A DNA stretch of 64,000 nt from an uncultured Syntrophomonadaceae bacterium (GCA_964436815.1 CAYTER010000006.1:2591-66590), one strand, 5' to 3'; shown: positions 4,917 to 64,000, counted from the stretch's first letter. Translations and numbers: made by a program. Notes: generated by a model from the sequence alone, not told the origin.

Positions 4917-4918
4917 AA

Positions 4919-35304: not shown

Positions 35305-35388
35305 CAAAACTTATTAACTGTCCCGGGTTAAAAGATGATGATCCCCCTTTAAAAAGGGTAAAAGCAAATAATAATTGGAGGAATATAG

Positions 35389-35661
35389 ATGTCTGCTGAA
35401 TCTATTAAACAAAATAATCCAGAACTAGAATACTGCTACTGCCACGAATGTCACAAACTGCGGGAAGCGGTCGATTTGGTTCTGACCGAAAAGGGTCTGC
35501 AATGCCGCTACTGCGGAGGTTATAATTTTGACCAGGCCGGCTGGGTCGTTTGCCCTCACCATAAAATATCTGCTGTCAAGTGTCCACGTTCCGGCAAGGG
35601 AATTATTGCAAGTGAAAACGGTCTGGAATGCACTGACCGCTGCTTTTTCCGTTCGATCTGA
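35389..35661 (+). CDS. Small Cys-rich (9 Cys in 90 aa) zinc-ribbon-like protein, uncharacterised
   Basis: Good RBS (TGGAGG 6 nt upstream). CxCxxC...CxxC knuckles plus four further Cys. Sits between yqeB and yqeC. Confidence 0.6.
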   Translation: MSAESIKQNNPELEYCYCHECHKLREAVDLVLTEKGLQCRYCGGYNFDQAGWVVCPHHKISAVKCPRSGKGIIASENGLECTDRCFFRSI

Positions 35662-35679
35662 AACACGGGGAATTAAGAT

Positions 35680-45492: not shown

Positions 45493-47070
45493 TTGCAACA
45501 ACAACCCCCCAGCATCTTTAACGATGTAATCGGTCCGATCATGCGCGGGCCTTCCAGTTCGCATACGGCAGCAGCTGTTAGAATTGGAAAACTGCTGCAC
45601 CAATATTACAACGGTAAATTTAAAGAAATAATGGTTGAGTTTGATCCGCAAGGATCTCTGGCCACGACCTACAGCAGTCAGGGATCGGATATTGGTTTGG
45701 CAGGGGGGATCCTGGATATGGATCCTGCGGATCCGGGATTATTAAATGCCTTAAAAACTGTTGCTGAAAAGGGTGTTTCTTTAAAATTTAAGATCACCGA
45801 ATTTGAGGCAAATCACCCGAACACTTACCGGATTAGAGTAATCAGTCCCAGTTTGAGAGAAGATTGCTTTATTTTTATCTCAACTGGTGGCGGAATGATC
45901 GAGTTGCAGGAGATTAACGGTTTGCCCGTATCGATCAAAGGAGATTATTTTGAAACGCTTTTGCTGCTTAAAAGTACAGATGAAGATCTGGTCCGAAAAT
46001 TTAAGACCAGGTTAATGGAAGAATATGAGACTATCGATTACTTTCTGGTCAATTCTGCCGGAGACCTGACATTAGTTGATATTAAAAGCACATCAATACT
46101 ACCTGATATAAGTAATCTGGCGTATCAGTATTTCCCGGAATTGATCAAGGTAACCTGCTTTACACCGGTTCTTCCAGTCAGATCAAACATTAAGGTTAGT
46201 CTGCCATTTCTCAACGCTGGGGAAGCTTTAGAAAATGATCGAAATAAAAAGCGGGCTCCTTCTGAGCTGGCCATTGAGTATGAATGTGCCCGAAGCGGGT
46301 TAACGAAAGAAGAAATTATAGAACAGGGACGTTTTCTGATTAAGGTTATGAGAGAGTCCGTTCAACAAGGCTTTTCAGGCAAAAAGTATGAAGATCGGAT
46401 TCTAGGCCCGCAGGCGGTCATGCTGAAAGATTTTAAGGGACAGTTGGTAAGCGGATCATTAAATAAGCGGGTAATTACCTATATTACAGCGATCATGGAA
46501 ACAAAAAGTTCCATGGGGGTAATCGTGGCTGCACCTACAGCCGGTTCGTGCGCAGGTTTACCCGGAGTCCTTCTAGCAGTAGCAGATGAGCTTGGACTGG
46601 CGGAAGATCTTATTGTAAGAGGGTTGCTCGCAGCCGGTTTAATTGGCGTTTTTATTTCTGCTACAAGCACATTTGCAGCCGAAGAATGCGGATGCCAGGC
46701 TGAATGCGGTTCAGGGTCCGGCATGGCAGCGGCAGCGTTGGTTGAATTAGCAGGAGGATCATCTGAAACTGCATTTTCGGCCGCCTCGATGGCTTTACAA
46801 AATATTCTGGGACTGGTCTGCGATCCAGTTGCGAATCGAGTAGAGGTGCCCTGTCTTGGCAAAAATGTTTTAGCCGGTATGAATGCCCTGGCATCTGCCG
46901 ATATGGCACTTTCCGGTTTTGACCCGGTAGTACCCTTAGATGAAAGTATCATCGCCCTTGATCAAGTCGGTCGGCTTTTACCTGCCGAATTACGTTGTAC
47001 CGGAAAAGGGGGCTTGTCTATAACTCCGGCTTCAGTTGCCCTGGAAAAGAAATTTCCATCAAAAAGTTAA
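45493..47070 (+). CDS. Iron-sulfur L-serine dehydratase-family protein (fused beta+alpha, unusually long)
   Basis: 525 aa, TTG start. VIGPIMRGPSSSHTAAAVRIG and a C-terminal alpha-domain with AAEECGCQAECGSGSGMAA. Confidence 0.8.
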   Translation: MQQQPPSIFNDVIGPIMRGPSSSHTAAAVRIGKLLHQYYNGKFKEIMVEFDPQGSLATTYSSQGSDIGLAGGILDMDPADPGLLNALKTVAEKGVSLKFKITEFEANHPNTYRIRVISPSLREDCFIFISTGGGMIELQEINGLPVSIKGDYFETLLLLKSTDEDLVRKFKTRLMEEYETIDYFLVNSAGDLTLVDIKSTSILPDISNLAYQYFPELIKVTCFTPVLPVRSNIKVSLPFLNAGEALENDRNKKRAPSELAIEYECARSGLTKEEIIEQGRFLIKVMRESVQQGFSGKKYEDRILGPQAVMLKDFKGQLVSGSLNKRVITYITAIMETKSSMGVIVAAPTAGSCAGLPGVLLAVADELGLAEDLIVRGLLAAGLIGVFISATSTFAAEECGCQAECGSGSGMAAAALVELAGGSSETAFSAASMALQNILGLVCDPVANRVEVPCLGKNVLAGMNALASADMALSGFDPVVPLDESIIALDQVGRLLPAELRCTGKGGLSITPASVALEKKFPSKS

Positions 47071-47639: not shown

Positions 47640-49799
47640 ATGACTAATGCTGTTGAGAAAATGCGCTCATCAAGGCGAGTGCTTGCTGAATTTAATTATG
47701 AACCAGCTAAAATCGATCGCGGCTATGCCGGAAAAACTCTGTATGTAAATCTTTCCAATAATATAATTGAATCCAAGACAGTTACCCAGCAGATGAAGGA
47801 TATTTTTATCGGCGGAAAAGGTTTTGGACTCTGGTATCTTTGGAATGCTGTTAAACCGGAAACAAAATGGAACGATCCTGAAAATGAAATAATTATATCC
47901 CCCGGACCAATAGCCGGCATAACCCAGTACCCGGGTTCCGGAAAATCACTGGTAGTCACTCTTTCACCCTTAACTGATTCAGTAATGGACAGCAATGTGG
48001 GTGGTTTTTTTGGTCCTTACTTTAAATTTTCAGGTTGGGACGCCCTGGAGATTCAGGGAAAAGCCAACAAAGATGTTGTAGTCTTTATCGACGGCGATAA
48101 AGGGCTGGTGACAATCGAAGAAGTTGATCTGGATCCAGGTGCGAGCCATCTGGTGAGCGAACGTCTAACCGAACTGATGGCTGAATCTGAACAGGATAAG
48201 AAGAATATATCAGTAGTATCTACCGGTAGCGGTGCAGAACACACCAGGGTAGGCATACTGAACTTTTCTTTTTATGACCTGCGAAGAAAAGTAGCCAGGT
48301 TAAAACAGGCTGGCAGAGGCGGTATCGGCACGGTATTCAGGGATAAAAAACTGGCAGCGCTGGTAGTTAAATTTTCCAATTTAAGCGGTAAAAGCAATAA
48401 CCCGGCCGACCCTGCAGCTATTGCCCGGACCGGGGTTAAGATTACAAGAGAGATCAATAAGTTTGATGATCAGCAGTTCAGAATGAGGCAGGTTGGCACC
48501 GCCAACCTGATGACTCCGATGAATGATTATGACCTGCTTCCGGTTCATAATTTTAAATACGGTTCGCATAAAGATGCCGGTGGTCTCTCGACAGAAGTTC
48601 TTCGGAACCGATTTACACAAAAGATGCCTGATGGCTGTTGGGTTGGCTGTGCTCTCTCCTGTTGTAAAGCGGTTGATGATTTTGAATTGAAGAGCGGACC
48701 TTTCAAAGGTGAAAAAGTTGTAGTTGATGGTCCTGAATATGAAAATGCTGCCGGGCTTGGTACAAACTGCGGTATATTTGATCCAGATTATGTGATCGAG
48801 GCTAATTTTTACTGTGATACCTATGGATTGGATACCATATCAACGGGTACAATCATCGCTTTTATTATGGAGTGCTATGAAAACGGCATTTTAAACAAAG
48901 AGATCACCGGCGGGCTGGAACTTAATTTCGGAAACGCCGATGCGGCAATGGAGCTGATTCACCAAATGGGCCAGGGACGCGGTTTCGGCAAGATCGCCGG
49001 CCAGGGAGTGCGGCGGATGAAGAAGATCTTTGCCGAAGAATACGGCGGAGATCCTGCGTTCCTGCAGGATATTGGTATGGAGAATAAGGGACTTGAATAT
49101 TCACAGTACCAGGCTAAGGAATCCTTGGCCCAGCAAGGTGGTTATGCCCTGACCAATAAAGGACCTCAGCATGATGAAGCCTGGTTGATTTTTATGGACA
49201 TGGTCAACAATCAGCTGCCGACTTTTGAGAAGAAAGCTGAAGCTTTGCATTATTTCCCAATGTTTAGAACCTGGTTTGGCCTTCAGGGTTTATGTAAACT
49301 GCCATGGAATGATATTATCCCGGAAGGGAATGCAGAGACGGAAGCACCGGAAAAAATACCGGAGCATGTCCAAAATTATGTTGATATTTTTAACGCAGTA
49401 ACCGGAAAAAATATTAACAAAGAAGAGATGATTCGCCAGTCAGAGAGAGTTTATAATTTCCAGCGGGTTTTTAACTTAAAGATGGGTTTTGGAACCAGAG
49501 AACACGATGCCGCGCCCTACAGGGCGCTTGGACCGGTGACTGAAGAAGAATACGAATCCCGTCAGGATCGTTATGATAAACAATTAAAGGAAGATGCCGG
49601 CATCGATCCGGCAGGAATGACAACTAAAGAAAAAGTCGCCGCGATGCGCAAATATCGTCAGGATCGCTACGATACCCTGGTTGATGTTGTTTACAAGCGC
49701 AGGGGCTGGAACGAAAACGGCGTGCCCAAAATTGAGCATCTGAAAGAGCTCGGGATTGATTTCCCGGAAGTGATCGAAGTTGTCAGGAAGCACCTGTAA
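47640..49799 (+). CDS. Aldehyde:ferredoxin oxidoreductase (AOR) family tungsto/molybdopterin enzyme, long (719 aa) variant
   Basis: N-terminal AOR_N-like region (GGKGFGLWYLW), EYENAAGLGTNCG, DTYGLDTIS, and a Cys cluster GCWVGCALSCC. Confidence 0.9.
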   Translation: MTNAVEKMRSSRRVLAEFNYEPAKIDRGYAGKTLYVNLSNNIIESKTVTQQMKDIFIGGKGFGLWYLWNAVKPETKWNDPENEIIISPGPIAGITQYPGSGKSLVVTLSPLTDSVMDSNVGGFFGPYFKFSGWDALEIQGKANKDVVVFIDGDKGLVTIEEVDLDPGASHLVSERLTELMAESEQDKKNISVVSTGSGAEHTRVGILNFSFYDLRRKVARLKQAGRGGIGTVFRDKKLAALVVKFSNLSGKSNNPADPAAIARTGVKITREINKFDDQQFRMRQVGTANLMTPMNDYDLLPVHNFKYGSHKDAGGLSTEVLRNRFTQKMPDGCWVGCALSCCKAVDDFELKSGPFKGEKVVVDGPEYENAAGLGTNCGIFDPDYVIEANFYCDTYGLDTISTGTIIAFIMECYENGILNKEITGGLELNFGNADAAMELIHQMGQGRGFGKIAGQGVRRMKKIFAEEYGGDPAFLQDIGMENKGLEYSQYQAKESLAQQGGYALTNKGPQHDEAWLIFMDMVNNQLPTFEKKAEALHYFPMFRTWFGLQGLCKLPWNDIIPEGNAETEAPEKIPEHVQNYVDIFNAVTGKNINKEEMIRQSERVYNFQRVFNLKMGFGTREHDAAPYRALGPVTEEEYESRQDRYDKQLKEDAGIDPAGMTTKEKVAAMRKYRQDRYDTLVDVVYKRRGWNENGVPKIEHLKELGIDFPEVIEVVRKHL

Positions 49800-50301: not shown

Positions 50302-51474
50302 TTGTTGTTGAAGAATAAAAGCATTCTATTATTAATGTTGGTTGTTGTTTTTGTGGTTTTTGGCGTTTTTGGTTGCGGTCAGCCGGCTACACCGCCTGCT
50401 GATGATACAGGCGAAGAGCCCGCTGCCGAATTTGAAGGCCAGGTTGTAATGGGCATCATGCTGCCGATTACCGGAGCTGTTGCTGAAAACGGAATCGATA
50501 TGGAGAATGCTGCAAAACTGGCGGTTGCTGAAATTAACGCTGCTGGTGGAGTATTAGGTTATGAGATTGTTACCTCGACCGGTGACGATGGTTGCGATCC
50601 GGCAATGGCAACTGCAGCAGCCAGCAAACTGGTTTCTGAAGAGGTCTTTGGTGTTGTTGGCGGTTACTGCTCAGGGGCTACCCTGCCAACCCTGAAAATC
50701 TACGGTGACGCCGGCATTCCTATCGTTTTGGCTGCTTCAAACTCAACCGCACTGATTGATGAGAACCCGGGTTGGGCTTTTCTGATTAATAGTACCGGCG
50801 ACATGCAGGCTGAAAACGCTGTAGCACAGTTTGAAAAACTTGGTGTTGAAACTATCGGGATCATTGATGCCGGTGACGCCTATTCAGCCGACGTTAAAGT
50901 TCAGACAACTGCTCAGTGGACTGCTAAAGGCTTTGAAGTTGTGATGGATGGTACTGTAAACCCCGGCGAGCAGGATTTCTCCTCGCTTGTAACAACCATT
51001 ATGTCAATTAATCCAGGCGGCATTTACTGGACTGGTTACCACGCTGAAGGCGGACTGTTGGTTCGTCAGCTGCGTGAAGCAGGTTACGAAGGAGTTCTGA
51101 TGGTAGCTGATGGAACCAGCGACCCAGCCTTTATCGATATCGCCGGTGAATATGGTGAAGGAGTCTTTTTAACAGCTCCTCCTTTTGCCGATTTAACTCC
51201 AACTGCACAGGGTTTTGCTAATGATTATCGTGCAACTTACAACAGGAATCCAGGTGCTTATGCTGGTTTAACCTATGATGCAGTTTATCTTCTGGTTGAT
51301 GCAGTTGAGCGTGCCGGTACTTTTGACGGCGCAGCGCTTAGAGATGAACTTGCAGCAACAGCAAATTGGCCTGGAATTTCAGGTGTAGTAACATTTACGG
51401 ATAAAAACACTATGAGTACCAGTAACTTCGTTATACTCGTTGTAAAAGATGGAGTATGGGCATTCGCTGAATAG
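50302..51474 (+). CDS. Branched-chain/hydrophobic amino acid ABC transporter substrate-binding lipoprotein (LivJ/K-like)
   Basis: 390 aa. Signal peptide with a lipobox-like VFGC. Type-I periplasmic binding fold. Three tandem in-frame TTG codons at 50302-50310, so the exact start is ambiguous. Confidence 0.9.
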   Translation: MLLKNKSILLLMLVVVFVVFGVFGCGQPATPPADDTGEEPAAEFEGQVVMGIMLPITGAVAENGIDMENAAKLAVAEINAAGGVLGYEIVTSTGDDGCDPAMATAAASKLVSEEVFGVVGGYCSGATLPTLKIYGDAGIPIVLAASNSTALIDENPGWAFLINSTGDMQAENAVAQFEKLGVETIGIIDAGDAYSADVKVQTTAQWTAKGFEVVMDGTVNPGEQDFSSLVTTIMSINPGGIYWTGYHAEGGLLVRQLREAGYEGVLMVADGTSDPAFIDIAGEYGEGVFLTAPPFADLTPTAQGFANDYRATYNRNPGAYAGLTYDAVYLLVDAVERAGTFDGAALRDELAATANWPGISGVVTFTDKNTMSTSNFVILVVKDGVWAFAE

Positions 51475-51493
51475 CATGCCTGAGCCAAGTGGA

Positions 51494-51521
51494 ACGCAGG
51501 CCCGTTTAAACGGGCCTGCGT
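51494..51521 (+). other. Perfect 11-bp hairpin between the binding-protein and permease genes (partial terminator or mRNA stabiliser)
   Basis: ACGCAGGCCCG-TTTAAA-CGGGCCTGCGT. No T-run follows. Confidence 0.4.
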
Positions 51522-51540
51522 ATTCTAGAGAGGTGAGCAG

Positions 51541-52458
51541 ATGTCCTTCTGGGAAATATTTCTTCAGCAGCTTTTTAATGGCTTATTAGTTGGTTCTTTT
51601 TATGGTCTTGTCGCAATTGGATATTCAATGGTCTATGGAATTATCAAGCTGCTCAACTTTGCTCACGCAGACATTTACATGAGCGGTGCTTTTGTTGGGA
51701 TGGTAGTTTTATCGTTTTTTGCAAATACTTTTATTGGTAATGCCTGGCTAGGTATTTCTATATCCCTTATCATTACCATGTTACTCGTTGGTCTGCTTGG
51801 AGTTATTATCCAACGAGTTGCTTATCGCCCAATGCTAAAGGCCCCCCGTCTGTCAATTCTAATTACTGCATTAGCGGTGTCCATGCTTTTATATAATTTC
51901 GTTTTGCTGCTTACCGGTGGTCAGGTAAGAGCTTTTAGAACTGGATTATCTGGAGATAGCTTTTTTATCGGTTCACTGAGGCTAACAGAAACCAGAGTGG
52001 TTCTATTAATTGCGGCATTCTTATTGATGTTAATTTTACACCAATTTATTACCAGAACTATGTACGGAAAAGCGATGAGGGCTATTGCCCTTGATCGCGA
52101 TACATGCCAATTAATGGGTATTAATGTATTCAAAATAATCGCACTAACCTTTTTTGTCGGCTCTTCACTTGCGGCAGCAGCCGGTATTATGGCCGGAGTT
52201 TATTACGGCTCAGCTCACTATTTTATGGGCTTTTTAATTGGCCTTAAAGCATTCACTGCTGCAGTTATAGGTGGCATTGGCATAATCCCTGGAGCGATGC
52301 TTGGAGGTTTACTTTTAGGGTTGCTTGAATCTTTTGCAATTCAGCTTCCATTCATCGGTACCGTATGGAAAGATGTTTTTTCCTTTGTTTTTCTTATTTT
52401 ATTCTTAATATTTAAACCAAACGGTATACTAGGACGTATTGAAAGTGAAAGGATGTAG
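51541..52458 (+). CDS. livH: Branched-chain amino acid ABC transporter permease (LivH-type)
   Basis: 305 aa polytopic. LLNFAHADIYMSGAF. Confidence 0.9.
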   Translation: MSFWEIFLQQLFNGLLVGSFYGLVAIGYSMVYGIIKLLNFAHADIYMSGAFVGMVVLSFFANTFIGNAWLGISISLIITMLLVGLLGVIIQRVAYRPMLKAPRLSILITALAVSMLLYNFVLLLTGGQVRAFRTGLSGDSFFIGSLRLTETRVVLLIAAFLLMLILHQFITRTMYGKAMRAIALDRDTCQLMGINVFKIIALTFFVGSSLAAAAGIMAGVYYGSAHYFMGFLIGLKAFTAAVIGGIGIIPGAMLGGLLLGLLESFAIQLPFIGTVWKDVFSFVFLILFLIFKPNGILGRIESERM

Positions 52459-52464
52459 CGCCCT

Positions 52465-53469
52465 ATGGAACATATAAAACAAAAAGAGAAAACCCTCAAC
52501 CCTTTTGAAAAAGTAGTTGAAAAGCTGTTTGCGTTATTTGACAATAACGTATTGCGCTACACAGTAATAGCACTTATAATTGCGTTTCTGGTCTATCTGC
52601 CGATGTCTGCCAGTCGTTTTACACAGGAAATCATGACCAATATGTTTTTTTATGTAGTTGTTTGTCTTGGACTCAATATAATTGTTGGTTTTGCCGGGCT
52701 ACTGCATCTTGGCTATGCTGCCTTTTTTGCTATTGGAGCTTATGTAACCGGTATTTTATCCTCAACTTACGGATTTAATTTCTGGATGACACTGCCGTTT
52801 AGTATTGTGGCCGCAATCATTGCCGGTCTGGTTATTGGCGTACCGACTTTGAGACTTCGTGGAGACTACCTGGCTATCGTAACACTTGGTTTTGGAGAAA
52901 TTATTCGCTTAACAGCACGTAATATATCTATTACCGGCGGTGCGGTAGGCTTGATCGGTATCGAAAGACCGGTGCTTTTTGGAATGGTCCTAAACCAGAT
53001 TTCTCATTTTTATTACATGTTTTTCATAATGGCTATTATTGCTATATTTATGTCCTACCGGCTGCATGATTCAAGGCTGGGCCGAGCCTGGCAGTATATC
53101 AGGGAGGATGAGGATGCCGCTTCTGCCATGGGCATTAATGTTGTTTCCACCAGACTCTTGGCATTTATAATCGGTTCATGCTTTGGGGCCCTGGCCGGCT
53201 CTTTCTTTGCTGTTAAAATGACTGCTATTACCCCTGAATCGTTTATGTTTTTACATTCGATTATGATTTTGTTGGCTGTCGTTCTGGGGGGGATGGGTAA
53301 GATCCCGGGGGTAGTGCTAGGAGCGATTATAGTTACTCTCTTCCCTGAACTCTCGAGAGATATAGGTCAATATAGAATGATTATTTTTGCCGTTGTTTTG
53401 TTAGTCCTAATGTTATACCGTCCACAGGGACTATGGCCGGACCGGCAGTTATTATCAACCAAAGAATAA
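52465..53469 (+). CDS. livM: Branched-chain amino acid ABC transporter permease (LivM-type)
   Basis: 334 aa polytopic. GLLHLGYAAFFAIGAY and LRGDYLAIVTLGFGEI. Confidence 0.9.
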   Translation: MEHIKQKEKTLNPFEKVVEKLFALFDNNVLRYTVIALIIAFLVYLPMSASRFTQEIMTNMFFYVVVCLGLNIIVGFAGLLHLGYAAFFAIGAYVTGILSSTYGFNFWMTLPFSIVAAIIAGLVIGVPTLRLRGDYLAIVTLGFGEIIRLTARNISITGGAVGLIGIERPVLFGMVLNQISHFYYMFFIMAIIAIFMSYRLHDSRLGRAWQYIREDEDAASAMGINVVSTRLLAFIIGSCFGALAGSFFAVKMTAITPESFMFLHSIMILLAVVLGGMGKIPGVVLGAIIVTLFPELSRDIGQYRMIIFAVVLLVLMLYRPQGLWPDRQLLSTKE

Positions 53470-53481
53470 TGGGGTGTTGTA

Positions 53482-54261
53482 GTGGCGCTGCTTGAAATCA
53501 AAGACTTAACCTTACGATTTGGCGGACTTTGTGCCGTCAATAATCTGTCACTTGAAATTGAGGAACACTCAATCAGAAGCCTTATTGGACCGAACGGGGC
53601 TGGTAAAACCTGTGTTTTTAACTGCCTTACCGGTTTTTACAAACCGAGCGGTGGAGATATGGTTTTTCAGGGAGAAAGCCTCTTAAAGAAAAAACCGCAT
53701 ATTATAACATACCGGGGAATGGCTAGGACATTCCAAAACCTGCGCTTATTTAGGCAAATGAATGTCATTGAAAATGTGATGTCGGGGATGCATTGCCGGA
53801 CCAGCGCCGGTTTTTCAGCGGCAGTTTTAAGGACAAAAGGTCAGAAAGCTGAAGAAAAAAGAATTCGTGAGGTAGCCGAGGAGTGCCTTGATTTTGTAGG
53901 CATCCTCGATAAAAAACATTACATGGCCAAAAACCTGCCTTATGGTGATCAGAGACGGGTTGAATGGGCGCGAGCGCTTGCCACCCAACCCAAGTTACTG
54001 TTGCTGGACGAGCCGGCGGCTGGATTGAATAAAGAAGAAAAAGCCCGCTTGATTGAATTAATTGCCCGCATTCGTGATGAACGCAAGATCACAATCTTCC
54101 TGATTGAGCATGACATGGGTTTGGTAATGAAGATTTCAGAAAAAATATTTGTGATTGATTACGGGGTAAAAATTGCCGAAGGGACAGCAAAAGAAGTCCG
54201 GGACAACCCACGGGTGATAGAAGCTTATCTGGGTAAGGAAGAACAGGAGGATGCCGTATGA
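53482..54261 (+). CDS. livG: ABC transporter ATP-binding protein (LivG-type)
   Basis: 259 aa. GPNGAGKT, LLLLDEPAAGL, and RVIEAYLG. Confidence 0.9.
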   Translation: MALLEIKDLTLRFGGLCAVNNLSLEIEEHSIRSLIGPNGAGKTCVFNCLTGFYKPSGGDMVFQGESLLKKKPHIITYRGMARTFQNLRLFRQMNVIENVMSGMHCRTSAGFSAAVLRTKGQKAEEKRIREVAEECLDFVGILDKKHYMAKNLPYGDQRRVEWARALATQPKLLLLDEPAAGLNKEEKARLIELIARIRDERKITIFLIEHDMGLVMKISEKIFVIDYGVKIAEGTAKEVRDNPRVIEAYLGKEEQEDAV

Positions 54262-54974
54262 GCGAAGTAGTCCTGGAGCTAAAAGATGTCGAAACACGCT
54301 ATGGTCAAATCTATGCTTTGCGCGGTGTCAACTTTCAGGTAAAAAAAGGTGAAATTGTTACCTTGCTCGGAGCGAATGGCGCCGGTAAAAGCACAACTTT
54401 GAAGACTATATCCAGTCTGGTCCCGGCCAGCGCCGGACAAGTACTTTTTATGGGTAAGGATATAACCTATGATCAACCTCACGCCATTGTGGAGATGGGT
54501 GTAATCCATGTTCCAGAAGGCCGGATGATCTTTAAGGAACTAACAGTTCGCGAAAATTTAGAGCTCGGTTCTTTTACCTTAAAGGATAATGTAGAGCGTA
54601 ACAAGCGTATCGAGCATGTATTTGAGATATTTCCGGTTCTTAAAGAACGCCACAAGCAGATGGGCGGTTTTCTGTCCGGAGGCGAACAGCAGATGCTGGC
54701 GATTGGCCGGGCAATGATGACTGAACCTAAAGTATTGATGCTTGACGAACCTTCAATGGGCTTGGCACCGATTATTGTCCAGAAGATTATGGAAATCATC
54801 AAAAAGATCAATGACGAAGGCACTACCGTGCTGCTGGTTGAACAGAATGCCAAGGTAGCGCTAAAACTCGCTGACCGGGGGTATGTCCTTGAAACTGGTG
54901 AAATTTCTATGGAAGGCGATGCTGATGTTTTGAGCAAGGATGAAAGCATTGTAAAAGCTTACCTGGGCGAGTGA
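54258..54974 (+). CDS. livF: ABC transporter ATP-binding protein (LivF-type)
   Basis: 238 aa. GANGAGKST, LSGGEQQML, LMLDEPSMGL, and VKAYLG. Confidence 0.9.
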   Translation: MSEVVLELKDVETRYGQIYALRGVNFQVKKGEIVTLLGANGAGKSTTLKTISSLVPASAGQVLFMGKDITYDQPHAIVEMGVIHVPEGRMIFKELTVRENLELGSFTLKDNVERNKRIEHVFEIFPVLKERHKQMGGFLSGGEQQMLAIGRAMMTEPKVLMLDEPSMGLAPIIVQKIMEIIKKINDEGTTVLLVEQNAKVALKLADRGYVLETGEISMEGDADVLSKDESIVKAYLGE

Positions 54975-55066: not shown

Positions 55067-56254
55067 ATGTCTATTCAAACCGGTCCTAAATTGGCTTCGG
55101 CAGCAACTGATGAACCGGAGATTGAAGAAAATATCCTCTATTATTTCTGGGGGCACTGCCCGATATGCAGCAAGCCGGAAGAGCATGTCGGACTTTTCAC
55201 TGATTATCCGGTCGAAGTCCGCATTTATGAAGTTTTTTACGACGAGGTTGGAAGAAACAAATATGATCAGGTCAGGGAAGAGCTTAACATAACCACGCTG
55301 GGTTTTCCAACTCTCGTCTATAACGATCGCTATTGGCTCGGTTTTTCGGAAACCGTTCAAGATGAGATCACTGCTGCAATTGAGTATTCACTGGATCTAA
55401 GGGAAGCCGATCGGGCCGGGAATATCATTGATTTGCCGCTTATAGGTAAAGTTGATCTTCAGACTGCGCCAATCATCCTAACTACAGTTCTTATTGCCTT
55501 TCTAGACGGGTTTAACCCCTGTTCACTGTTTGTGCTGACTTTTCTGTTGGCCATCATCATTCACTCGGCTTCCCGTAAGAAAATCTTTCTAATCGGCTTT
55601 ACTTTTCTTTTGGTTACCGCTGCTGTTTATGGCTTGTTCATATTAGGAATTCTAAACATTATGGTTTTTGCAGCCCGCCTCTTCTGGATTCGTAACATTA
55701 TTGCCGCGCTTGTGATCGTAGTCGGACTGTTTGGCATTAAAGATTTTTTAGTAGCGCAAGAGGGTCCGACATTTTCGATACCGGAAAAGCATAAATCGAA
55801 GTTTTACAAACAGGTCAGGAAAATATTTTACACCGATTCTGTGCTGCCGATGATCGGCGCCACGGCAGTGATGGGGTTGGGTATCGCCCTGGTTGAATTG
55901 CCCTGTACAGCCGGTTTCCCGTTTATTTGGAGTACAATCGTCTCCGGGCTGGATCTTTCAAAAAACTATTTTGTATTGCTTTTTGCGATTTACATACTTA
56001 TTTACCTGCTGGATGAGATCGTTATATTCATGGTGGCAGTAATAAAAATGCGCTCGGCAAAAATGACGGAAGAGCAGGGGAGAACCCTGAAACTGGTCGC
56101 CGGAACATTAATGCTGGTTCTGGGCTTGATACTGCTATTCAAACCTGAATATATGGAAAGCATACTCGGCTTAGTCGCCACTTTTGGCGTGGCCATTTTG
56201 GTTACTTTTTTAATCTATCAGCTAAAGAAGTTTTATAATATGAAAAGATCATAG
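55067..56254 (+). CDS. Thioredoxin-like (CPIC) domain fused to a DsbD/CcdA-like transmembrane thiol-disulfide electron-transfer domain. The true start is probably upstream of 55067.
   Basis: 395 aa from ATG 55067. [13 protein letters not shown] CxxC motif. Membrane domain with [13 protein letters not shown] and [10 protein letters not shown]. The same frame is open back to 55016 and encodes a signal-peptide-like segment. Confidence 0.75.
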
Positions 56255-57277
56255 CTGCGGCCAGGTGTCGGAGATGCGGTAACCTTCCGGCCAGGGATCA
56301 GTCGGATCAACAATATGCTGGTGAGTTCCCGTAATCCAGGCCTGCCCGGAAATAAGCGGATAGATAGCCTGCCGTTCGCCAACCCTGGTCAGTGAATCTA
56401 TGGTGCAATGAAAACGGGATCCGATGATTGATTCGCCGATATATTGTTCACCGGGTTTTAAAAGCCCCTGGTGATGCAGTAAAGCCATGCGGGCTGAGCA
56501 CCCGGTACCGGTGGGGCTTCGATCCAGTTTTCCCGGTTGAATAACGACGGTATTGCGCCCAATTAAACAGCTATTCTCTTTTATCAGTGAAGCAGTTAAC
56601 TGGCAAAAAGAAATGTGGTTCCACTCTGGATTTTCAGGATGATAAAAACCCAGCTGTTCATTGGCGGCATTAGTAATTTTAATCCCGGTTTCAACCAAAT
56701 CCCGGGCTTCATCAGCGGTTAGTTTAAACCCAAGATTTTCGGCATCAACGATTACAAAACTATCTCCGCCATAAGCAGTGGCGACAGTTAAGCTGCCTAG
56801 CCCTTCAACTTCCAAGGTGGCACTTGCTTTATCGACAAAAGACGGAACGTTACGAACTGTAACGCGGGTAACTTTACCATTTTCACAGCGAGCTACTACT
56901 TCAATCAATCCACCCGGCGGTTCCAGGATCATTTTTGTTTCCGGTTCCTGCATTGGAATAATGCCGGTTTCTAAAAGAACTGTTGAAACACAAATTGAGT
57001 TGGAACCGGACATCGGTGGGGTATCCTCAGGTTCCATTATAATCCAGCCCATTTGCGCCTTTGAATTTATTGGCGGAACGAGCAGGTTCACATGACGAAA
57101 AACTCCGCCACGCGGTTCATTAAGCATCAGATTGCGCAATTTCTGATCTGCAGCAATAAAACGGGATTGTTCCCAGATTGTTTTTCCGGGCGGAGGCGCA
57201 ACACCCCCGACGATAACATCTCCTACTTCTCCTTCAGCATGGCAACTGACAACATGAATAACCTGTTTTGCGCGCAA
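56249..57277 (-). CDS. Proline racemase/4-hydroxyproline epimerase-superfamily protein with Ser/Thr at the two catalytic positions (possible hydroxyproline dehydratase-type member)
   Basis: 342 aa. TTG start 6 nt after [17 protein letters not shown] where racemases and epimerases have MCGHNS, and [12 protein letters not shown] where they have DRSPCGTG. Confidence 0.85.
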
Positions 57278-57292
57278 AGTTTTCCCTCCAGC

Positions 57293-58255
57293 CTAAATTA
57301 ATCCGCTCCCGGATTTTACCGGCAAAGCGCCCGCGAAACTTCGCATAAAGGAAACTCTCTCCTTAAGATACTCTTCTGTCGGTGGTTTCAGATCCCGGCA
57401 TTGATATTCGAGGCCAAGGTGCCGGTAGGTATCGCTGCCGAGGCGATGGAAGGGTAAAATTTCCAGTGAGGATATGCAGGTATGTTTAAGGCAGAATTTA
57501 ACTGTTTCCTGCAGATTTTGATCTTTATCATTAAAGCCTGGAATCAGGGGCAGCCGGATTGTAACCTTTAGGGGAAAATCGGAAGCGTCGATCTTCTTTA
57601 TATTTTCCAAGATCAAAATGTTGTCTTCCCCCAGCCACAGATGGTGTAGCTTGGCGTCCATCTGTTTCAGGTCGATATAAAGATGATCAAGCCAGGGTAA
57701 AGACAGGGCGATTTGCTCAAAAGGGACATGAAGGCAGCTTTCAACAGCAGTGTGGATACCGAGTTTTTTACAGTTCTTGAGCACCGCAGCGGTAAATTCC
57801 GATTGAACAAAAGGTTCTCCACCACTGATGGTCACTCCGCCGCCGGAATGGAAGTAAAATACTTCGTCTTTGCGGATCTGATCAACCGTTTCTGCCACAG
57901 TAAGGGTTAACCCGTATCTTCTGATGGCGTTTTGTAGACAGGCACCTGCACAGATTAAACAGTGTTTGCACCTTGACTGATCAATGGTTACCCTCTTTTG
58001 AACTTGATCCAGGGTAAGCGCCTGCTCAGGACAGGCATCGACGCATCTGCCGCAAAATATACAGAGCTCTTCGATGTAGCCGCGCTGTGGGCTTTGATTT
58101 CTCGATTCCGGGGTTGAGCACCAGGGGCAGTGAAGAGGGCAGCCTTTTAAAAAGATGACAGTTCTTAAACCCTGACCATCGTGGAGGGAAGCCCGTTCAA
58201 ACCTTAGTACATCGCCCTGTAAAGCAACACCTGATTTTTGAAGGTTATCATTCAT
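57293..58255 (-). CDS. Glycyl-radical enzyme activating enzyme (radical SAM, with an extra ferredoxin-like 2x[4Fe-4S] insert)
   Basis: 320 aa. CPLHCPWC radical-SAM motif, CIFCGRCVDACP and CKHCLICAGAC, and GGVTISGGEP. ATGA overlap with the GRE gene. Confidence 0.9.
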   Translation of the reverse strand: MNDNLQKSGVALQGDVLRFERASLHDGQGLRTVIFLKGCPLHCPWCSTPESRNQSPQRGYIEELCIFCGRCVDACPEQALTLDQVQKRVTIDQSRCKHCLICAGACLQNAIRRYGLTLTVAETVDQIRKDEVFYFHSGGGVTISGGEPFVQSEFTAAVLKNCKKLGIHTAVESCLHVPFEQIALSLPWLDHLYIDLKQMDAKLHHLWLGEDNILILENIKKIDASDFPLKVTIRLPLIPGFNDKDQNLQETVKFCLKHTCISSLEILPFHRLGSDTYRHLGLEYQCRDLKPPTEEYLKERVSFMRSFAGALPVKSGSGLI

Positions 58256-60663
58256 CCGACTGAAATGCCCTGCAGCACGGTCCGTCCAATGATTTCATCC
58301 TGGACATCTTTACCCAACTCGGTAAAGTAAGCAGTATAACCAGCCACCCTGACCAGAAGGCCTTTGTATTTTTCAGGTTCCTGCTGAGCTTTCAGTAAAG
58401 TTTCCTGGTCGATTACATTAAACTGAACGTGATAGACTCCAAGACTGCACATACTCTTTAACATTGCCATTAACTGGGTGATTCCGTTTTCCGTATTAAA
58501 CATGGCCGGTTCAATTTTCATGTTCAAAAGCGTTCCCTGAACAAAGCGACCGTGAGGGATGTGGGCTACTGAAGATAAAACTGCAGTCGGCCCGTTTAAA
58601 TCTGTTCCACCGCTTGGACTGACTCCGTCAGCGAGAGGCTGCCAAGCTTTGCGACCTGAAGGTAAAGCGCCAACTTCAAGACCAAAGGGGGTATTACCGG
58701 AAACAGGTAGAATCCCGGGAGTCATTTTGCCATATTTGCTGCTGTATTGTTCAATTTCATCGGCTATGAAAGTGAATATATCCCCTGCTATCTGATCGGT
58801 AAGAGAATCATTATTACCATATTTTGGAGCCTCAAGGCAAAATTTTCGCAGTTCGTCATAACCGATAAAATCAGCGTCCAGAGCCTTAACCAGGTCGCAC
58901 ATCCGGACGTGGCCGGTGTCGTATACTAAATGTTTTACAGCAGCGATGCTGTTAATCAGATCGGCTACTCCAATCAGGATAATCCCGTTGCCTGTATTAT
59001 ATTTTGCACCGCCCCAGGCATAATCAAGGCCTTTATCAATGCATTCACGGAAAGTGAGTGATAGAGCAGGAACAGGCCGGTTAGTGCCGATTTCGTCAAT
59101 CACGTGGCTGCCGGCAACCACTGATCTTGTCACGTAGGCAATCTGCGCTTTAATTGCATCAAGGAACTGTTCATAGTTTACAAAGGAGGTCGGGTCCCCG
59201 GTTCGGGCTGAGATGTACAGATCGCTTTTTCTATTTTTGCCATCGGCTAGTGCAAACTCGACTATGCTGCCGAGGTTAATATCGGCTAAAGCAGTGTACT
59301 GGCGTAAACGGCCTTCGAGATTAGTTTCAACGCAACCACAGGGGTTCCAGTTATACGCTTCTTTTAAAGGAATACCCTTGTTCATCAGCATCATAATTCC
59401 AAGATCATCATTATGAAAAGCGGGAAATCCGGTGCCAAGGCTAATAAGTTCAACAATTTTGCGCAGGAAAGCATTTGGATTTTTGGCCATGCTATAACGT
59501 ACAGAAAGAGATGGTTGATAGAGCTGCACATCCATCGTGGCTTGCAGAATCAGGTAAGAAAGTTCATTGACCGCATCTTTACCGGTGGTATCAACCCCGC
59601 CGACACAGACATTTTGAAACATCGGGTAGCCGGCGGCAAATTCTGCTGTCAGGGCATCCTGAAATAAGCAGGGTTCACTGAACTTCACCCATAAACAATC
59701 AATTAATTCCTGTGCTTCTTCGCGGCTTAATCTGCCGGCAGCGAGATCAGCCTGGTAGTAGGGCCACAAATACTGATCCATACGTCCGGGGTTGTAACTG
59801 GCAGCATTTTGTTCCATGAAGATACAGGTTTGATAGAAATAAAGCGATTGCAGAGCTTCTCTGAATGTCCGGGCTGGTTGCTGAGGTACATGATGACAGG
59901 TGTCGGCAATCTGTAATAATTCTTCCCGCCGGCGGCAATCAGTTTCCAGCTCCGCCAGGCGTTCTGCTTCTAAAGCGTATCTTTTGGCAAGAGCGGCCAT
60001 TCCTTCCGCAACGATTAACAGTGCTTGCAGATAGCAATCTTTTTCATAATCTCCCGGGCGGGTGATATCCAGTTTTATACGTTTTGCTTTAATCGTATCA
60101 ATGATGCCGGAAAGCCCATCCCTGATCAGCCATTCATAACCGGCAGTTGTTTCGCCCCAACCCCGCACCGCTTTTCGATCAATATATACAACTCCATGAT
60201 CGCGTAAGGCCCGGGTAGATTCAGGGATCTGGGCCAGCCATGCTTCATAATTTGAACGACCCTTCCAGTAAGGCTTAATCTCTTTTTCAAACATAATTTT
60301 ATCTTCAGGTTTTAGATAGAATGGATCATATTTACGCGTACTAATGGTCTCAAGTTCCTGATCGAGAACCGACCAGCATGAATCGGCGCAAAGAATACCG
60401 CCGCGGATTTTACTGCCGGAGCAGCCGACGATCAGCTCATCATCCCAGATTTTGATCGTTTTTAAGAGGCACTGTTTTTTAAAAGCTTTTGCTTTTCTAA
60501 GAACGAGAGGCTCTCCTTCAGTCTCACGGAAACCTTCAGTTAACAACTTCGCGTTCTCCAGATCCATTTCCGGCTTTGTAGATAGAACCCGCTTTTTTAA
60601 ACGGAAAATGCGTTCCATGTAGCTTGGAATTTGATCCAGGATTTTTTCTGTTGTTTGGGGCAT
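58252..60663 (-). CDS. Glycyl radical enzyme (PFL2/glycerol-dehydratase-like eliminase clade), substrate unknown (GRE-1)
   Basis: The ORF track extends to 60804, but its first 47 codons are low-complexity AT-rich sequence. ATG 60663 has GGAGGG 7 nt upstream and gives 803 aa. Cys loop NPCGCVETN. Glycyl radical motif LLVRVAGYTAYF. Confidence 0.9.
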   Translation of the reverse strand: MPQTTEKILDQIPSYMERIFRLKKRVLSTKPEMDLENAKLLTEGFRETEGEPLVLRKAKAFKKQCLLKTIKIWDDELIVGCSGSKIRGGILCADSCWSVLDQELETISTRKYDPFYLKPEDKIMFEKEIKPYWKGRSNYEAWLAQIPESTRALRDHGVVYIDRKAVRGWGETTAGYEWLIRDGLSGIIDTIKAKRIKLDITRPGDYEKDCYLQALLIVAEGMAALAKRYALEAERLAELETDCRRREELLQIADTCHHVPQQPARTFREALQSLYFYQTCIFMEQNAASYNPGRMDQYLWPYYQADLAAGRLSREEAQELIDCLWVKFSEPCLFQDALTAEFAAGYPMFQNVCVGGVDTTGKDAVNELSYLILQATMDVQLYQPSLSVRYSMAKNPNAFLRKIVELISLGTGFPAFHNDDLGIMMLMNKGIPLKEAYNWNPCGCVETNLEGRLRQYTALADINLGSIVEFALADGKNRKSDLYISARTGDPTSFVNYEQFLDAIKAQIAYVTRSVVAGSHVIDEIGTNRPVPALSLTFRECIDKGLDYAWGGAKYNTGNGIILIGVADLINSIAAVKHLVYDTGHVRMCDLVKALDADFIGYDELRKFCLEAPKYGNNDSLTDQIAGDIFTFIADEIEQYSSKYGKMTPGILPVSGNTPFGLEVGALPSGRKAWQPLADGVSPSGGTDLNGPTAVLSSVAHIPHGRFVQGTLLNMKIEPAMFNTENGITQLMAMLKSMCSLGVYHVQFNVIDQETLLKAQQEPEKYKGLLVRVAGYTAYFTELGKDVQDEIIGRTVLQGISVG

Positions 60664-60797
60664 GAAATATCCCTCCAGGCAATGCATTAATGTATAATTG
60701 ATTATAGCATACCGTGAGGAGAGAACACAGAAAAATATAGATGTAATGTATATAATTATGTTATAATAATAATCGTTATTAGAATAGATGGAGAAAT

Positions 60798-61715
60798 ATG
60801 ACACAAGGATTAATATTTAATATCCAGCGGTTTTCACTGCATGACGGGCCAGGTGTTAGAACTACTGTATTCTTAAAGGGCTGCCCCTTAAACTGTAGCT
60901 GGTGTCAAAATCCTGAAGGGATTAGCATGGATCCGCTGATTGTCAGGCATATAAACAAATGCCTGGCCTGTTTAAGTTGTTTTAAACAATGTCCGACCGG
61001 CTCAATTAAAATAACTGATAAAGGACCTGTAATAGATCAGCAGAGTTGCCGAAAATGTTTTGGCTGTGCTGATGTCTGTCCGGCCGGAGCAATTAAAGTT
61101 GCCGGAAAAATGTTTACAGCTGAAGCATTAACTAAAGAGTTGCTTAAAGATCGCCTTGTTTACGAAGAATCAGGAGGAGGAGTAACCTTTTCCGGCGGTG
61201 AGCCTTTCATGCAGCCGGTGTTTCTGCTGGAAATGTTAAAAAGCTTAAAGAATCAGGGCATACATACGGCGATTGAAACCTGCGGACACACTAAATGGGA
61301 AAATATAAAAGAGACAATTCCTTTTACAGATCTCTATCTATACGATCTTAAATTTATTGATGAAGAAAAATGCGCTCGTTATACAGGGGTTTCGGGGCAG
61401 TTAATTCTTTCTAATTTTAAAAAACTTACCGCTCTGAATCCGGCTATAATAATAAGAATACCATTGATACCTAGTATAAACGATGATCATGCAAGCCTGC
61501 TTAAAATAGCTGAGTTTCTAAAATCAGCAGCTGTCGATCACGCTGAGTTAATACCTTACCATAATTATGGAGAAAGTAAGTATGATAATATCGGGTGCGA
61601 GTATAAATTAAAGGGCTTGGAAAAGCATTCTGACCTGGATTTGGAAAACATAAAATATGTTTTGGGTAGAGCCGGTATAAACACTGATAATGGGGGTGGA
61701 AGTAATGTCTTATGA
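60798..61715 (+). CDS. Glycyl-radical enzyme activating enzyme (second copy)
   Basis: 305 aa. CPLNCSWC, CLACLSCFKQCP and CRKCFGCADVCP, and GGVTFSGGEP. Confidence 0.9.
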   Translation: MTQGLIFNIQRFSLHDGPGVRTTVFLKGCPLNCSWCQNPEGISMDPLIVRHINKCLACLSCFKQCPTGSIKITDKGPVIDQQSCRKCFGCADVCPAGAIKVAGKMFTAEALTKELLKDRLVYEESGGGVTFSGGEPFMQPVFLLEMLKSLKNQGIHTAIETCGHTKWENIKETIPFTDLYLYDLKFIDEEKCARYTGVSGQLILSNFKKLTALNPAIIIRIPLIPSINDDHASLLKIAEFLKSAAVDHAELIPYHNYGESKYDNIGCEYKLKGLEKHSDLDLENIKYVLGRAGINTDNGGGSNVL

Positions 61716-64000
61716 AGAACGAGGCATGAACGCCAGGATCAAAAAATTAAGAGCACAAAGTGAAAACACTGCTCCGGAAATATCTCCCGAAAGAGCTTTA
61801 ATTGTTACGGAAACATATAAAAAAGAATCCGGCAAAGTTTCCACCCTGATGCTTAGGGCACTCACTTTTAAGAATTTAATGGAACAGAAAACAATTTGCA
61901 TTAATGAAGGCGAACTGATTGTTGGTGAAAGGGGAACGGGACCGCAGGTAACCCCAACCTACCCTGAATTATGCTGTCATACCATAGACGATCTTGATGT
62001 TATCAGCAACCGTGAAAAAATCTCTTTCAAAGTAAGCGCTGAAACCAAAAAGATTCAACAACAGGAAATCATTCCTTTTTGGAAAGATCGCTCCATGCGG
62101 GAAACTATATTTAAAAAAATGAATCAGCAGTGGCTGGATTGCTATCAGGCCGGCCTGTTTACTGAGTTTATGGAGCAACGCGCTCCGGGTCATACAGTAG
62201 CTGGGAACAAAATATATGACACAGGAATGTTGGATATTATTGCATTAATTGATAAAAGACTGTCAGAAAGCGATCGCCAGGAAAGCTTTTTAAGCGCAGA
62301 ACAGCAGGAAGAACTGAAGGCAATGGCAATATGCGCAAAAGCGTTAATCAGTTTTGCCGAACGTCATGCCGCTATGGCTGAACTGATAGTCGAGACAGAA
62401 ACAGACGCTGCCCGGAAAAAAGAGCTGCTGCAGATAGCCGAAGTCTGCCGGTACATACCTGCGCACGCTCCGCGCAACATGTGGGAAGCTTTACAGTACT
62501 ACTGGTTCGTTCACCTTGGTGTCATTACCGAACTCAATACCTGGGATGCTTTCTGTCCGGGACGTCTGGATCAACACCTTGAACCTTTTTATCAGAAAGA
62601 TCTCAAATCGGGAGCGCTAACACGCGAAAAAGCCAAGGAATTGCTTGAATGCTTTTGGATTAAATTTAACAATCAACCGGCGCCTCCAAAGGTTGGCATA
62701 ACCCTGAAAGAGAGCGGTACCTATACTGACTTTGCTAATATCAACCTTGGTGGAGTAAAGGCGGATGGTTCAGACGGCGTTAATGATTTGACTTATCTGC
62801 TGCTGGAAGTTATCGATGAGATGAGATTGCTGCAGCCAAGCACCAACGTGCAGGTCAGTAAAAAAAATCCGGATCTTTTTGTTCGAAAAGCGGGAGAAGT
62901 GATCCGCAAAGGCTGGGGACAGCCATCAGTTTTTAATGTCGAGGCTATCATCCAGGAGCTGTTAGGACAGGGAAAGTCTTTGATTGATGCCCGCTGTGGT
63001 GGAACGAGCGGCTGTGTGGAAACAGGTGCATTTGGTAAAGAAAGTTATATTCTGACCGGCTATTTTAACTTGACCAAAGTTTTAGAGATAACGCTGAATG
63101 ATGGTCTGGATCCCGCGACCGGAAAACTGATTGGGCTTGGGACGGGAAAAGAGGCCGCTTTTGAATCTTTTGATCATTTAATGGAAGCATTTAATAAGCA
63201 GCTGAATCATTTTATTGACATAAAAATAGAGGGCAATCAAATTATCGAAGAACTTTATGCCACCTTAATGCCGGCGCCATTCCTATCACTGATTATTGAC
63301 GATTGCATTGACAACGCCAGGGATTATAACGCAGGTGGATCCCGCTACAATACCAACTACATCCAGGGTGTGGGCATTGGGTCAATAACCGACAGTCTGA
63401 GCGCGATCAAGAAACATGTTTTCGAAGAACATCGATTGAGCATGTCCGAACTGCTTGAGATCCTAAAAAGTAATTTTTCCGGCCAAGAGCACGTCAGGCA
63501 GCTACTGATCAATAAAACTTCTCATTACGGCAATGATGATGAATACGCAGATGAGATAATGAAAAAAGTGTTTCATCTGTTCCATGCGGCCGTTGATGGC
63601 AGGGCGAGCTATCGCGGCGGAACTTATAGGATTAACATGCTTCCAACAACCTGTCATGTTTATTTCGGTTCAGTGATTGGAGCTACTCCCGATGGAAGGC
63701 TAAGCGGCATGCCTTTATCGGAAGGAATATCCCCGGTTCAGGGTGTAGATTTAAATGGACCGACTGCCGTGATAAAATCAGCATCAAAAATGGACCATCT
63801 TTTAACCGGCGGTACTTTGCTCAATGTTAAATTTACACCGCAGGTTCTGTCAGGTGAGAAGGGTTTAGACAGTCTCGTTCACTTGATTCGTTCATATTTC
63901 AGATTAGACGGGCATCATATCCAGTTTAATGTAGTTGACTCGGAGATGCTCAAGAAAGCACAAAAATTTCCTGAACAGTACGGGAATTTAATCGTCAGGG
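61705..64000 (+). CDS. Glycyl radical enzyme, trans-4-hydroxy-L-proline dehydratase (HypD)-like (GRE-2). The 3' end lies beyond the window.
   Basis: Not in the ORF track because there is no stop in the window. ATG 61705 follows GGGGGTGGA and overlaps the activase stop by 11 nt. The frame is open to 64000 and ends ...EQYGNLIVR, just before the expected RVAGY glycyl motif. Contains FTEFMEQRAPGHT, NNQPAPPKVGITLKESGTYTDFANIN and GGTSGCVETG. Confidence 0.85.
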   Translation, partial: MSYEERGMNARIKKLRAQSENTAPEISPERALIVTETYKKESGKVSTLMLRALTFKNLMEQKTICINEGELIVGERGTGPQVTPTYPELCCHTIDDLDVISNREKISFKVSAETKKIQQQEIIPFWKDRSMRETIFKKMNQQWLDCYQAGLFTEFMEQRAPGHTVAGNKIYDTGMLDIIALIDKRLSESDRQESFLSAEQQEELKAMAICAKALISFAERHAAMAELIVETETDAARKKELLQIAEVCRYIPAHAPRNMWEALQYYWFVHLGVITELNTWDAFCPGRLDQHLEPFYQKDLKSGALTREKAKELLECFWIKFNNQPAPPKVGITLKESGTYTDFANINLGGVKADGSDGVNDLTYLLLEVIDEMRLLQPSTNVQVSKKNPDLFVRKAGEVIRKGWGQPSVFNVEAIIQELLGQGKSLIDARCGGTSGCVETGAFGKESYILTGYFNLTKVLEITLNDGLDPATGKLIGLGTGKEAAFESFDHLMEAFNKQLNHFIDIKIEGNQIIEELYATLMPAPFLSLIIDDCIDNARDYNAGGSRYNTNYIQGVGIGSITDSLSAIKKHVFEEHRLSMSELLEILKSNFSGQEHVRQLLINKTSHYGNDDEYADEIMKKVFHLFHAAVDGRASYRGGTYRINMLPTTCHVYFGSVIGATPDGRLSGMPLSEGISPVQGVDLNGPTAVIKSASKMDHLLTGGTLLNVKFTPQVLSGEKGLDSLVHLIRSYFRLDGHHIQFNVVDSEMLKKAQKFPEQYGNLIVR

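Follow-up and report, generated by a model that had tools for sequence, protein, structure and literature searches.

Which substrates are handled by two glycyl-radical enzymes (GREs) that are encoded back to back, each with its own activating enzyme (activase), next to a protein of the proline racemase (ProR) fold? The question is raised by one end of a 64,000-nucleotide stretch of DNA from an uncultured Syntrophomonadaceae bacterium (GCA_964436815.1, CAYTER010000006.1:2591-66590), referred to as a whole as the window. From the sequences and their conserved surroundings, we consider it probable that the two GRE modules and the ProR-fold gene (56249-64000) form the core of a conserved anaerobic hydroxyproline-utilization island running three parallel dehydrations. 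In anoxic habitats, carbon and nitrogen are abundantly available as hydroxyprolines from collagen, from the cell walls of plants and from osmolytes, and one lineage would here combine uptake and aldehyde oxidation with three hydroxyproline dehydratases that are already known. Every one of these dehydratases comes from a described family, that is, HypD, HpyG/HpzG (described in 2024) and the dehydratase of trans-3-hydroxy-L-proline (t3HypD); it is the combination that is new and not the kind of enzyme. The conserved combination apparently has not been described, and neither the three-dehydratase island nor the split between pocket and gene neighborhood discussed below is mentioned in the literature examined, to which the primary HpyG paper did not belong.

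The three predicted dehydratases

The two modules diverge from a single spacer of 134 bp (60664-60797), as had been stated in the original prediction, an earlier reading of the same DNA. On the minus strand, GRE-1 (58252-60663; 803 aa, with an ATG start after a GGAGGG ribosome-binding site) is followed by activase-1 (57293-58255; 320 aa), whose start codon shares the sequence ATGA with the GRE-1 stop codon, so that translational coupling is predicted. Behind activase-1, a 15-nt gap containing another GGAGGG site leads to the gene for the ProR-fold protein (56249-57277; 342 aa, TTG start). A longer open reading frame (ORF) for GRE-1, of 850 aa and initiated at GTG, was regarded as an artefact, the ATG behind the GGAGGG site being preferred. 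On the plus strand, activase-2 (60798-61715; 305 aa) overlaps GRE-2 (61705-64000) by 11 nt. Of the 793 residues of GRE-2, 765 are encoded inside the window, the edge of which falls just before the RVAGY glycyl-radical motif; the gene is complete on the source contig (locus L001, from an ENA metagenome assembly), which ends 79 bp past the stop codon. RVAGY is present in both GREs, with the radical glycine at Gly775 in GRE-1 and Gly768 in the full-length copy of GRE-2 on L001, and so is the GCVE Cys loop, with Cys444 and Cys437, respectively. The ORF list and translations agree with the five genes, overlaps and motifs described earlier, including GCSGSKIRGGILCADSCWSVLDQE, NWNPCGCVETNLEG and ARCGGTSGCVETGAFG, all of which were found. 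It was also rightly noted that the GREs share GCVE and yet are strongly divergent, their identity being 35%, and that of the two activases 37%. Both activases are radical-SAM GRE-activating enzymes, scoring 309.1 bits (activase-1) and 338.6 bits (activase-2) against TIGR02494, which has a cut-off of 174.

GRE-2 is predicted to be a trans-4-hydroxy-L-proline dehydratase (HypD), which bears out the original prediction. It scores 1296.5 bits against the NCBIfam HypD equivalog NF043068 (cut-off 1100), its missing C-terminus notwithstanding, and aligns without gaps to HypD of Clostridioides difficile (PDB 6VXC; 1093 bits). Fourteen residues of the latter enzyme have been described as catalytic, substrate-contacting or charge-stabilizing (F152, R156, H160, W277, D278, K326, S334, D339, F340, C434, V435, E436, Y450 and T645; PMC7077986), and all 14 are identical in GRE-2 as well as in all 11 syntenic HypD homologs. 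Scores elsewhere are low, at 380 bits for HplG and 443.6 bits for the CutC model TIGR04394 (cut-off 1050). The activase of GRE-2, predicted to serve HypD, carries a CPLNCSWC motif and two ferredoxin-type Cys motifs, and its best equivalog is the HypD activase NF043069 (350.8 bits, under the cut-off of 425). The likeness to C. difficile HypD (PDB 6VXC/6VXE) thus comprises a gap-free alignment and identical pocket residues, with the activase of GRE-2 located immediately upstream, whereas the divergent pairing with a second GRE module sets the present HypD apart. Neither the window nor the syntenic relatives were found to have a gene for a reductase of 1-pyrroline-5-carboxylate (P5C) beside HypD.

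GRE-1 can safely be predicted to be a member of the HpyG-like family, and its probable substrate is an N-methyl-4-hydroxyproline. Among PDB entries it matches 8ID1 best (1234 bits, over the full length) and then 8IOF (920 bits), followed by CutC structures (560-660 bits), HypD (487 bits) and HplG (353 bits). According to a passage of the review PMC13450708, which cites Jiang et al., ACS Catal 2024, 8ID1 and 8IOF are HpyG and HpzG, respectively, both of them N-methyl-4-hydroxyproline dehydratases. The tblastn identity of GRE-1 is 66.7% to HpyG and 51% to HpzG. In a neighbor-joining tree of 45 GRE-1/HpyG-type sequences together with HpzG and 13 HypD sequences, HpzG is the outgroup, HpyG joins six genome homologs, and GRE-1 lies in a larger sister subclade. 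GRE-1 and HpyG have in common GCVE, RVAGY and a dedicated activase directly downstream, and the Cys loop of GRE-1, NWNPCGCVETNLEG, places Cys444 and Glu446 opposite Cys435 and Glu437 of HpyG. When the HypD pocket positions are mapped by sequence alignment rather than from the 8ID1 coordinates, 13 of the 14 are the same in GRE-1 as in HpyG, and GRE-1 has the HpyG residue at each of the four mapped positions that split HpyG from HpzG (R/K, A/S, F/T and D/E). HpzG resembles GRE-1 in family, fold and CVE motif, but differs in being the outgroup of the HpyG/GRE-1 clade and in these four stereo-discriminating mapped positions, where the exchanges are K/R, S/A, T/F and E/D. Both GRE-1 and HpyG have an Ala in place of HypD Asp278, the residue that deprotonates the substrate amine (PMC7077986); an Ala at this position would fit a tertiary amine as substrate. 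The earlier view of GRE-1 as a distinct proline-derivative eliminase with its own activase therefore holds, but its status as unassigned does not, since score, identity and tree all put it in the HpyG/HpzG family; the suggestion of a wholly new substrate is likewise unsupported, that family having already been described. No NCBIfam equivalog reaches its cut-off for GRE-1, the best being the CutC model TIGR04394 with 684.9 bits against 1050, which explains why GRE-1 was left unassigned and why public annotation gives it a generic or 'choline trimethylamine (TMA)-lyase' label. More widely, HpyG-type enzymes are still publicly labeled 'choline TMA-lyase' or as generic PFL-family proteins, and no NCBIfam model covers them.

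The ProR-fold protein is predicted to be a dehydratase of trans-3-hydroxy-L-proline (t3Hyp) and not an epimerase feeding GRE-1, although it may have a minor epimerase activity. Its score against NF047722 is 620.9 bits (cut-off 550), with protein and model both covered in full, and that against PDB 4K7G 538 bits; its identity to 4K7G, 4K8L and 1TM0 is about 70%. Its Ser90, Asn93 and Thr256, within motifs that include MSGSNS and DRSPTGTG, are identical to those of 4K7G (B9K4G4 of Agrobacterium vitis, from cluster 3 of the proline racemase superfamily), a protein of equal length that dehydrates t3Hyp with Ser90 as the base, Asn93 positioning the Ser and Thr256 being non-catalytic (Zhao et al. 2014, PMC4113996). 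Unlike the gene for B9K4G4, the present one is found in a Bacillota-type metagenome-assembled genome (MAG), where it closes a GRE operon. A ProR-family gene adjoins the GRE-1 module in 15 related loci. In four of them it is of the Ser/Thr type and on the GRE-1 strand; in the other 11 the slot is taken by a Cys/Thr paralog, 29-35% identical, which is the final gene of a transporter operon on the opposite strand and has NF045511 as its best model, below cut-off. Cys/Thr is the other known signature of t3Hyp dehydratases (PMC4113996). That one slot is filled by two paralogs of the same predicted activity suggests that what the locus needs is a 3-hydroxyproline dehydratase rather than an epimerase for GRE-1, and the location on the opposite strand in 11 relatives indicates that the link between ProR and GRE-1 exists at the level of the locus and is not a fixed operon partnership. 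As a separate observation, the ProR-fold protein shows about 70% identity with alphaproteobacterial enzymes (from Agrobacterium, Ochrobactrum and Brucella) and only 29-35% with the Cys/Thr paralog of sister lineages, which suggests that the gene may have been acquired horizontally and replaced another at this slot.

Conservation of the locus and a predicted pathway

Comparison with 54 related loci, by tblastn and ORF clustering, revealed a block that is conserved among Bacillota MAGs, Syntrophomonadaceae-like ones included. On one side of the spacer, and read towards it, the block consists of an Fe-S flavoprotein, a NuoF-like protein, an ornithine aminotransferase, HypD and activase-2; on the other, divergently, of GRE-1, activase-1 and the ProR-family gene, beyond which it continues with a 395-aa membrane protein, LivF/G/M/H/K and either an aldehyde:ferredoxin oxidoreductase (AFOR) or a pair of genes for an L-serine-dehydratase-like and an OCD-family protein. 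The divergent arrangement of HypD and GRE-1 is shared by 11 other loci, mostly from Syntrophomonadaceae-like MAGs, and there are three further partial cases at contig edges; in Desulfosporosinus the two modules are co-directional. The branching of the HypD tree parallels that of the GRE-1 tree, which indicates joint inheritance of the pair. In the complete genome of Desulfosporosinus sp. SB140 (L004, 12394-14266), each activase gene appears to be split in two fragments, which could reflect real frameshifts or sequencing errors.

The genes that follow HypD were read in seven relatives (L005, at 1-9785, and L009, L034, L036, L047, L049 and L051). They encode the ornithine aminotransferase (NF003145, above cut-off), the NuoF-like Fe-S flavoprotein of about 800 aa and an HcnAB-like Fe-S/flavin protein, joined in L005 by a DAO-family protein and a P5C reductase, and the set looks like a proline/P5C-oxidizing module. 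The other flank of the block can be followed in the window itself, where a LivK/H/M/G/F-type amino-acid ABC transporter is encoded on the plus strand (50302-54974; Pfam Peripla_BP_6, BPD_transp_2 twice and ABC_tran twice, on L001). It is syntenic in at least 12 related loci and is presumed to be the hydroxyproline uptake system. AFOR (47640-49799, plus strand; AFOR_N and AFOR_C domains) heads the transporter operon and, with 719 aa, is unusually long. It is 82-89% identical to proteins encoded at the same position in L005, L020, L034, L049 and L051, a conservation which suggests that the pathway has an aldehyde intermediate, e.g. glutamate semialdehyde. The last gene of the operon (55067-56254, plus strand) encodes the 395-aa membrane protein, with about six transmembrane segments, a CPIC motif at the N-terminus and isolated Cys residues within NPC and LPC motifs. 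This protein matched no Pfam or NCBIfam model even at E = 0.01, and nine related loci have it at 60-84% identity, flanked by the ProR gene and the ABC ATPases; we take it to be reminiscent of thiol-disulfide transporters of the CcdA/DsbD type.

Further upstream, and 11 kb from the ProR-fold gene, lies the gene for an OCD/mu-crystallin-family protein (44498-45460, plus strand), a candidate reductase of 1-pyrroline-2-carboxylate (Pyr2C). Next to it is the gene for a fused beta and alpha Fe-S L-serine-dehydratase-like protein (45493-47070, plus strand), with SDH_alpha and SDH_beta domains in Pfam and matches just below cut-off to the sda alpha and beta models of NCBIfam. The two genes together adjoin LivK in L017 and L047, and a partial OCD ORF lies by the serine-dehydratase-like gene in L009. 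An OCD-family gene is also a feature of four loci with the Cys/Thr ProR paralog (L004, L013, L017 and L047), and in L004 and L013 the two are immediate neighbors. The serine-dehydratase-like protein could act as the dehydratase of another beta-hydroxy amino or imino acid, feeding the reductase.

Taken together, these neighbors allow a pathway to be proposed. Hydroxyprolines would enter through the adjacent LivKHMGF-type transporter, whose specificity is presumptive. HypD, activated by activase-2, would convert trans-4-hydroxy-L-proline to P5C through the known mechanism, in which the thiyl radical abstracts a hydrogen at C5 and the 4-hydroxyl is then lost; GRE-1, with activase-1, would likewise convert an N-methyl-4-hydroxyproline, the presumed substrate, to N-methyl-P5C by C5 hydrogen abstraction and elimination of the 4-hydroxyl; and the Ser/Thr ProR-fold enzyme would convert t3Hyp to Pyr2C without a radical. 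Pyr2C would then probably be reduced to proline by the upstream OCD-family protein. More speculatively, and judging from conserved neighbors, P5C/glutamate semialdehyde might be turned into glutamate by AFOR or into ornithine by the aminotransferase of the relatives.

The pocket of GRE-1 and competing readings

GRE-1 differs from HpyG in both pocket and surroundings. Just three alignment columns cleanly separate its subclade (33 sequences) from HpyG proper (seven sequences), namely Ser334 to Ala, Tyr450 to Leu and Asp515 to Glu, GRE-1 having Ala343 and Leu459 where HpyG has Ser334 and Tyr450. The first of these columns coincides with HypD Ser334, which is essential and binds the substrate carboxylate, and the second lies, near an alignment gap, no more than two residues from HypD Tyr450, which also binds the carboxylate (PMC7077986). 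At the Tyr450 column, GRE-1 has Leu, HpzG Ile and HpyG Tyr, and GRE-1 is thus nearer to HpzG there. Across 55 loci, the Ser/Tyr (S/Y) state is accompanied by genes for helix-turn-helix (HTH)-cupin, P5C reductase (P5CR)-like, MttB, BCCT or MFS proteins, with at least one of them in eight of the nine S/Y loci, and the Ala/Leu (A/L) state by HypD, ProR, LivK and AFOR or by none of these. The exact 8ID1 sequence (P0121) and a homolog from Eubacterium maltosivorans are among the S/Y proteins, whose neighbors constitute a betaine-demethylation context; HpyG proper has P5CR-like, HTH-cupin, MttB and BCCT/MFS neighbors, whereas those of GRE-1 are HypD, t3HypD, the ABC transporter and AFOR. Stand-alone GRE-1-type genes in the Clostridium-like loci L018, L021 and L050 have unrelated sporulation, cyanophycin and arginine-deiminase genes as neighbors and give no functional clue. 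Because of the two pocket exchanges and the lack of the neighbors typical of HpyG proper, GRE-1 may differ from HpyG in its exact substrate, and the split between pocket and neighborhood is a testable lead on divergence of specificity within this GRE family.

Carried further, this could mean that GRE-1 has a separate specificity within the HpyG-like family, having been recruited to a collagen-type hydroxyproline island and not to a betaine-demethylation pathway, which we regard as possible but distinctly less likely than not. Candidate substrates would be N-methyl-trans-4-hydroxy-L-proline, another N-alkyl or hydroxyproline isomer, or non-methylated cis-4-hydroxyproline. N-methyl-trans-4-hydroxy-L-proline is the common natural isomer. 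Two of the three clade-separating columns fall in substrate-pocket segments (S334A and Y450L), pocket state tracks neighborhood over the 55 loci, and Leu at the second position is closer to the Ile of HpzG than to the Tyr of HpyG. However, the 13 of 14 mapped pocket residues shared with HpyG include all four that distinguish HpyG from HpzG, GRE specificity is usually kept at 67% identity, and the mapping of Tyr450 was derived from a sequence alignment that has a gap close by and not from the 8ID1 coordinates. In addition, A/L is found in basal branches too and may therefore be an ancestral, neutral state. We hold as a similarly tentative view that the A/L subclade represents a third specificity in the N-methyl-hydroxyproline GRE family, for instance towards N-methyl-trans-4-hydroxy-L-proline or another derivative of hydroxyproline, in which case its fixed association with HypD, t3HypD, the ABC transporter, AFOR and the ornithine aminotransferase might define a previously unrecognized oxidative, multi-substrate hydroxyproline pathway in syntroph-like Bacillota.

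Much less probable is the model of the original prediction, in which GRE-1 either receives a D- or 3-hydroxyproline isomer from the ProR-fold enzyme or acts as a C-N lyase like HplG. It is true that the ProR-fold gene has a ribosome-binding site of its own and follows activase-1 on the same strand after 15 nt, and that a ProR-family gene adjoins the GRE-1 module in the 15 related loci. Nevertheless, a Ser/Thr partner (elsewhere Cys/Thr) lacks the two-base pair of classical Cys/Cys epimerases and matches t3Hyp dehydratase models, in the present case above cut-off, its Pyr2C product would have no hydroxyl for a GRE eliminase to remove, and in 11 of the 15 loci the gene belongs to the transporter operon on the opposite strand. 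As to the C-N lyase, HplG (7VUA) is likewise a GRE with a hydroxyproline isomer as its substrate and carries a CXE motif, but it scores only 353 bits with GRE-1, against 1234 for HpyG, and 380 with GRE-2, and is of neither GRE's family; in agreement with the earlier remark that thiolase genes are not adjacent, no 2-amino-4-ketopentanoate (AKP) thiolase pair of the OrtAB type is present in the locus. A choline trimethylamine-lyase (CutC) has a practically negligible chance of being the right identity for GRE-1, even though CutC is its best NCBIfam equivalog (684.9 bits) and JGI names some relatives 'choline trimethylamine-lyase': the cut-off of 1050 is far off, CutC structures give 560-660 bits where HpyG gives 1234, and microcompartment and choline-utilization genes were not found nearby. 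Both the CutC and the HplG identity were dropped on score.

The reading that we prefer, that of an island with three parallel dehydrations, has to be set against several observations that weigh against it. GRE-1 is only 67% identical to the sole characterized HpyG, and the exchanges of Ser334 to Ala and Tyr450 to Leu are fixed across its entire subclade. P5CR-like, HTH-cupin, MttB and BCCT/MFS genes are absent within 10 kb in the window and in the A/L loci, apart from L005 with its distant P5CR-like match of 26% identity, and the window has no evident gene for an enzyme that would process N-methyl-P5C. The OCD-family protein matches OCD-family as well as Pyr2C/Pip2C reductase models, but is below every curated cut-off. 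Finally, cluster 3 of the proline racemase superfamily, to which the closest relatives of the ProR-fold protein belong, is functionally mixed, comprising 4HypE/3HypE as well as t3HypD (PMC4113996).

The divergent spacer and unrelated genes of the window

In an alignment with five related loci, the 134-bp spacer shows what look like two extended -10 promoters, placed back to back and accompanied by candidate operators, so that each GRE operon would be under its own promoter. The predicted promoter of GRE-1, TGCTATAAT (60709-60701, minus strand), overlaps a 14-nt palindrome (60693-60706), which is near-perfect in the window and perfect in relatives, and that of activase-2/HypD, TGTTATAAT (60759-60767, plus strand), overlaps the palindrome TAATAA-TCG-TTATTA (60767-60781). 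Both promoter blocks are invariant or nearly so among these loci, the mean column identity of the spacer being 74%. A generic sigma-70 -35/-10 scan of the spacer gave no site, and the extended -10 elements were seen only by aligning the relatives. Rfam gave no family in the spacer and no riboswitch or leader near the locus, the only hits being four tRNAs elsewhere; nor does the locus contain a regulator gene. The spacer is physically shared, and the two operons may be regulated in common.

The remainder of the window is unrelated to the GRE locus and holds beta-oxidation-like genes, a purine/xanthine cluster and genes for methylthioadenosine (MTA) salvage. The purine/xanthine catabolism cluster (21901-37068) encodes xanthine-dehydrogenase-type Mo, FAD and 2Fe-2S subunits, a PucR regulator and a xanthine/uracil permease, as well as AllG/AllH-like oxamate carbamoyltransferase subunits and a YqeC/MocA fusion. 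Upstream of the beta-oxidation-like set, which comprises SDR, MaoC hydratase and thiolase-like proteins and a CoA transferase, an ORF on the minus strand (10349-11221) joins an N-terminal MerR HTH to a TetR_N domain, an unusual double-HTH architecture.

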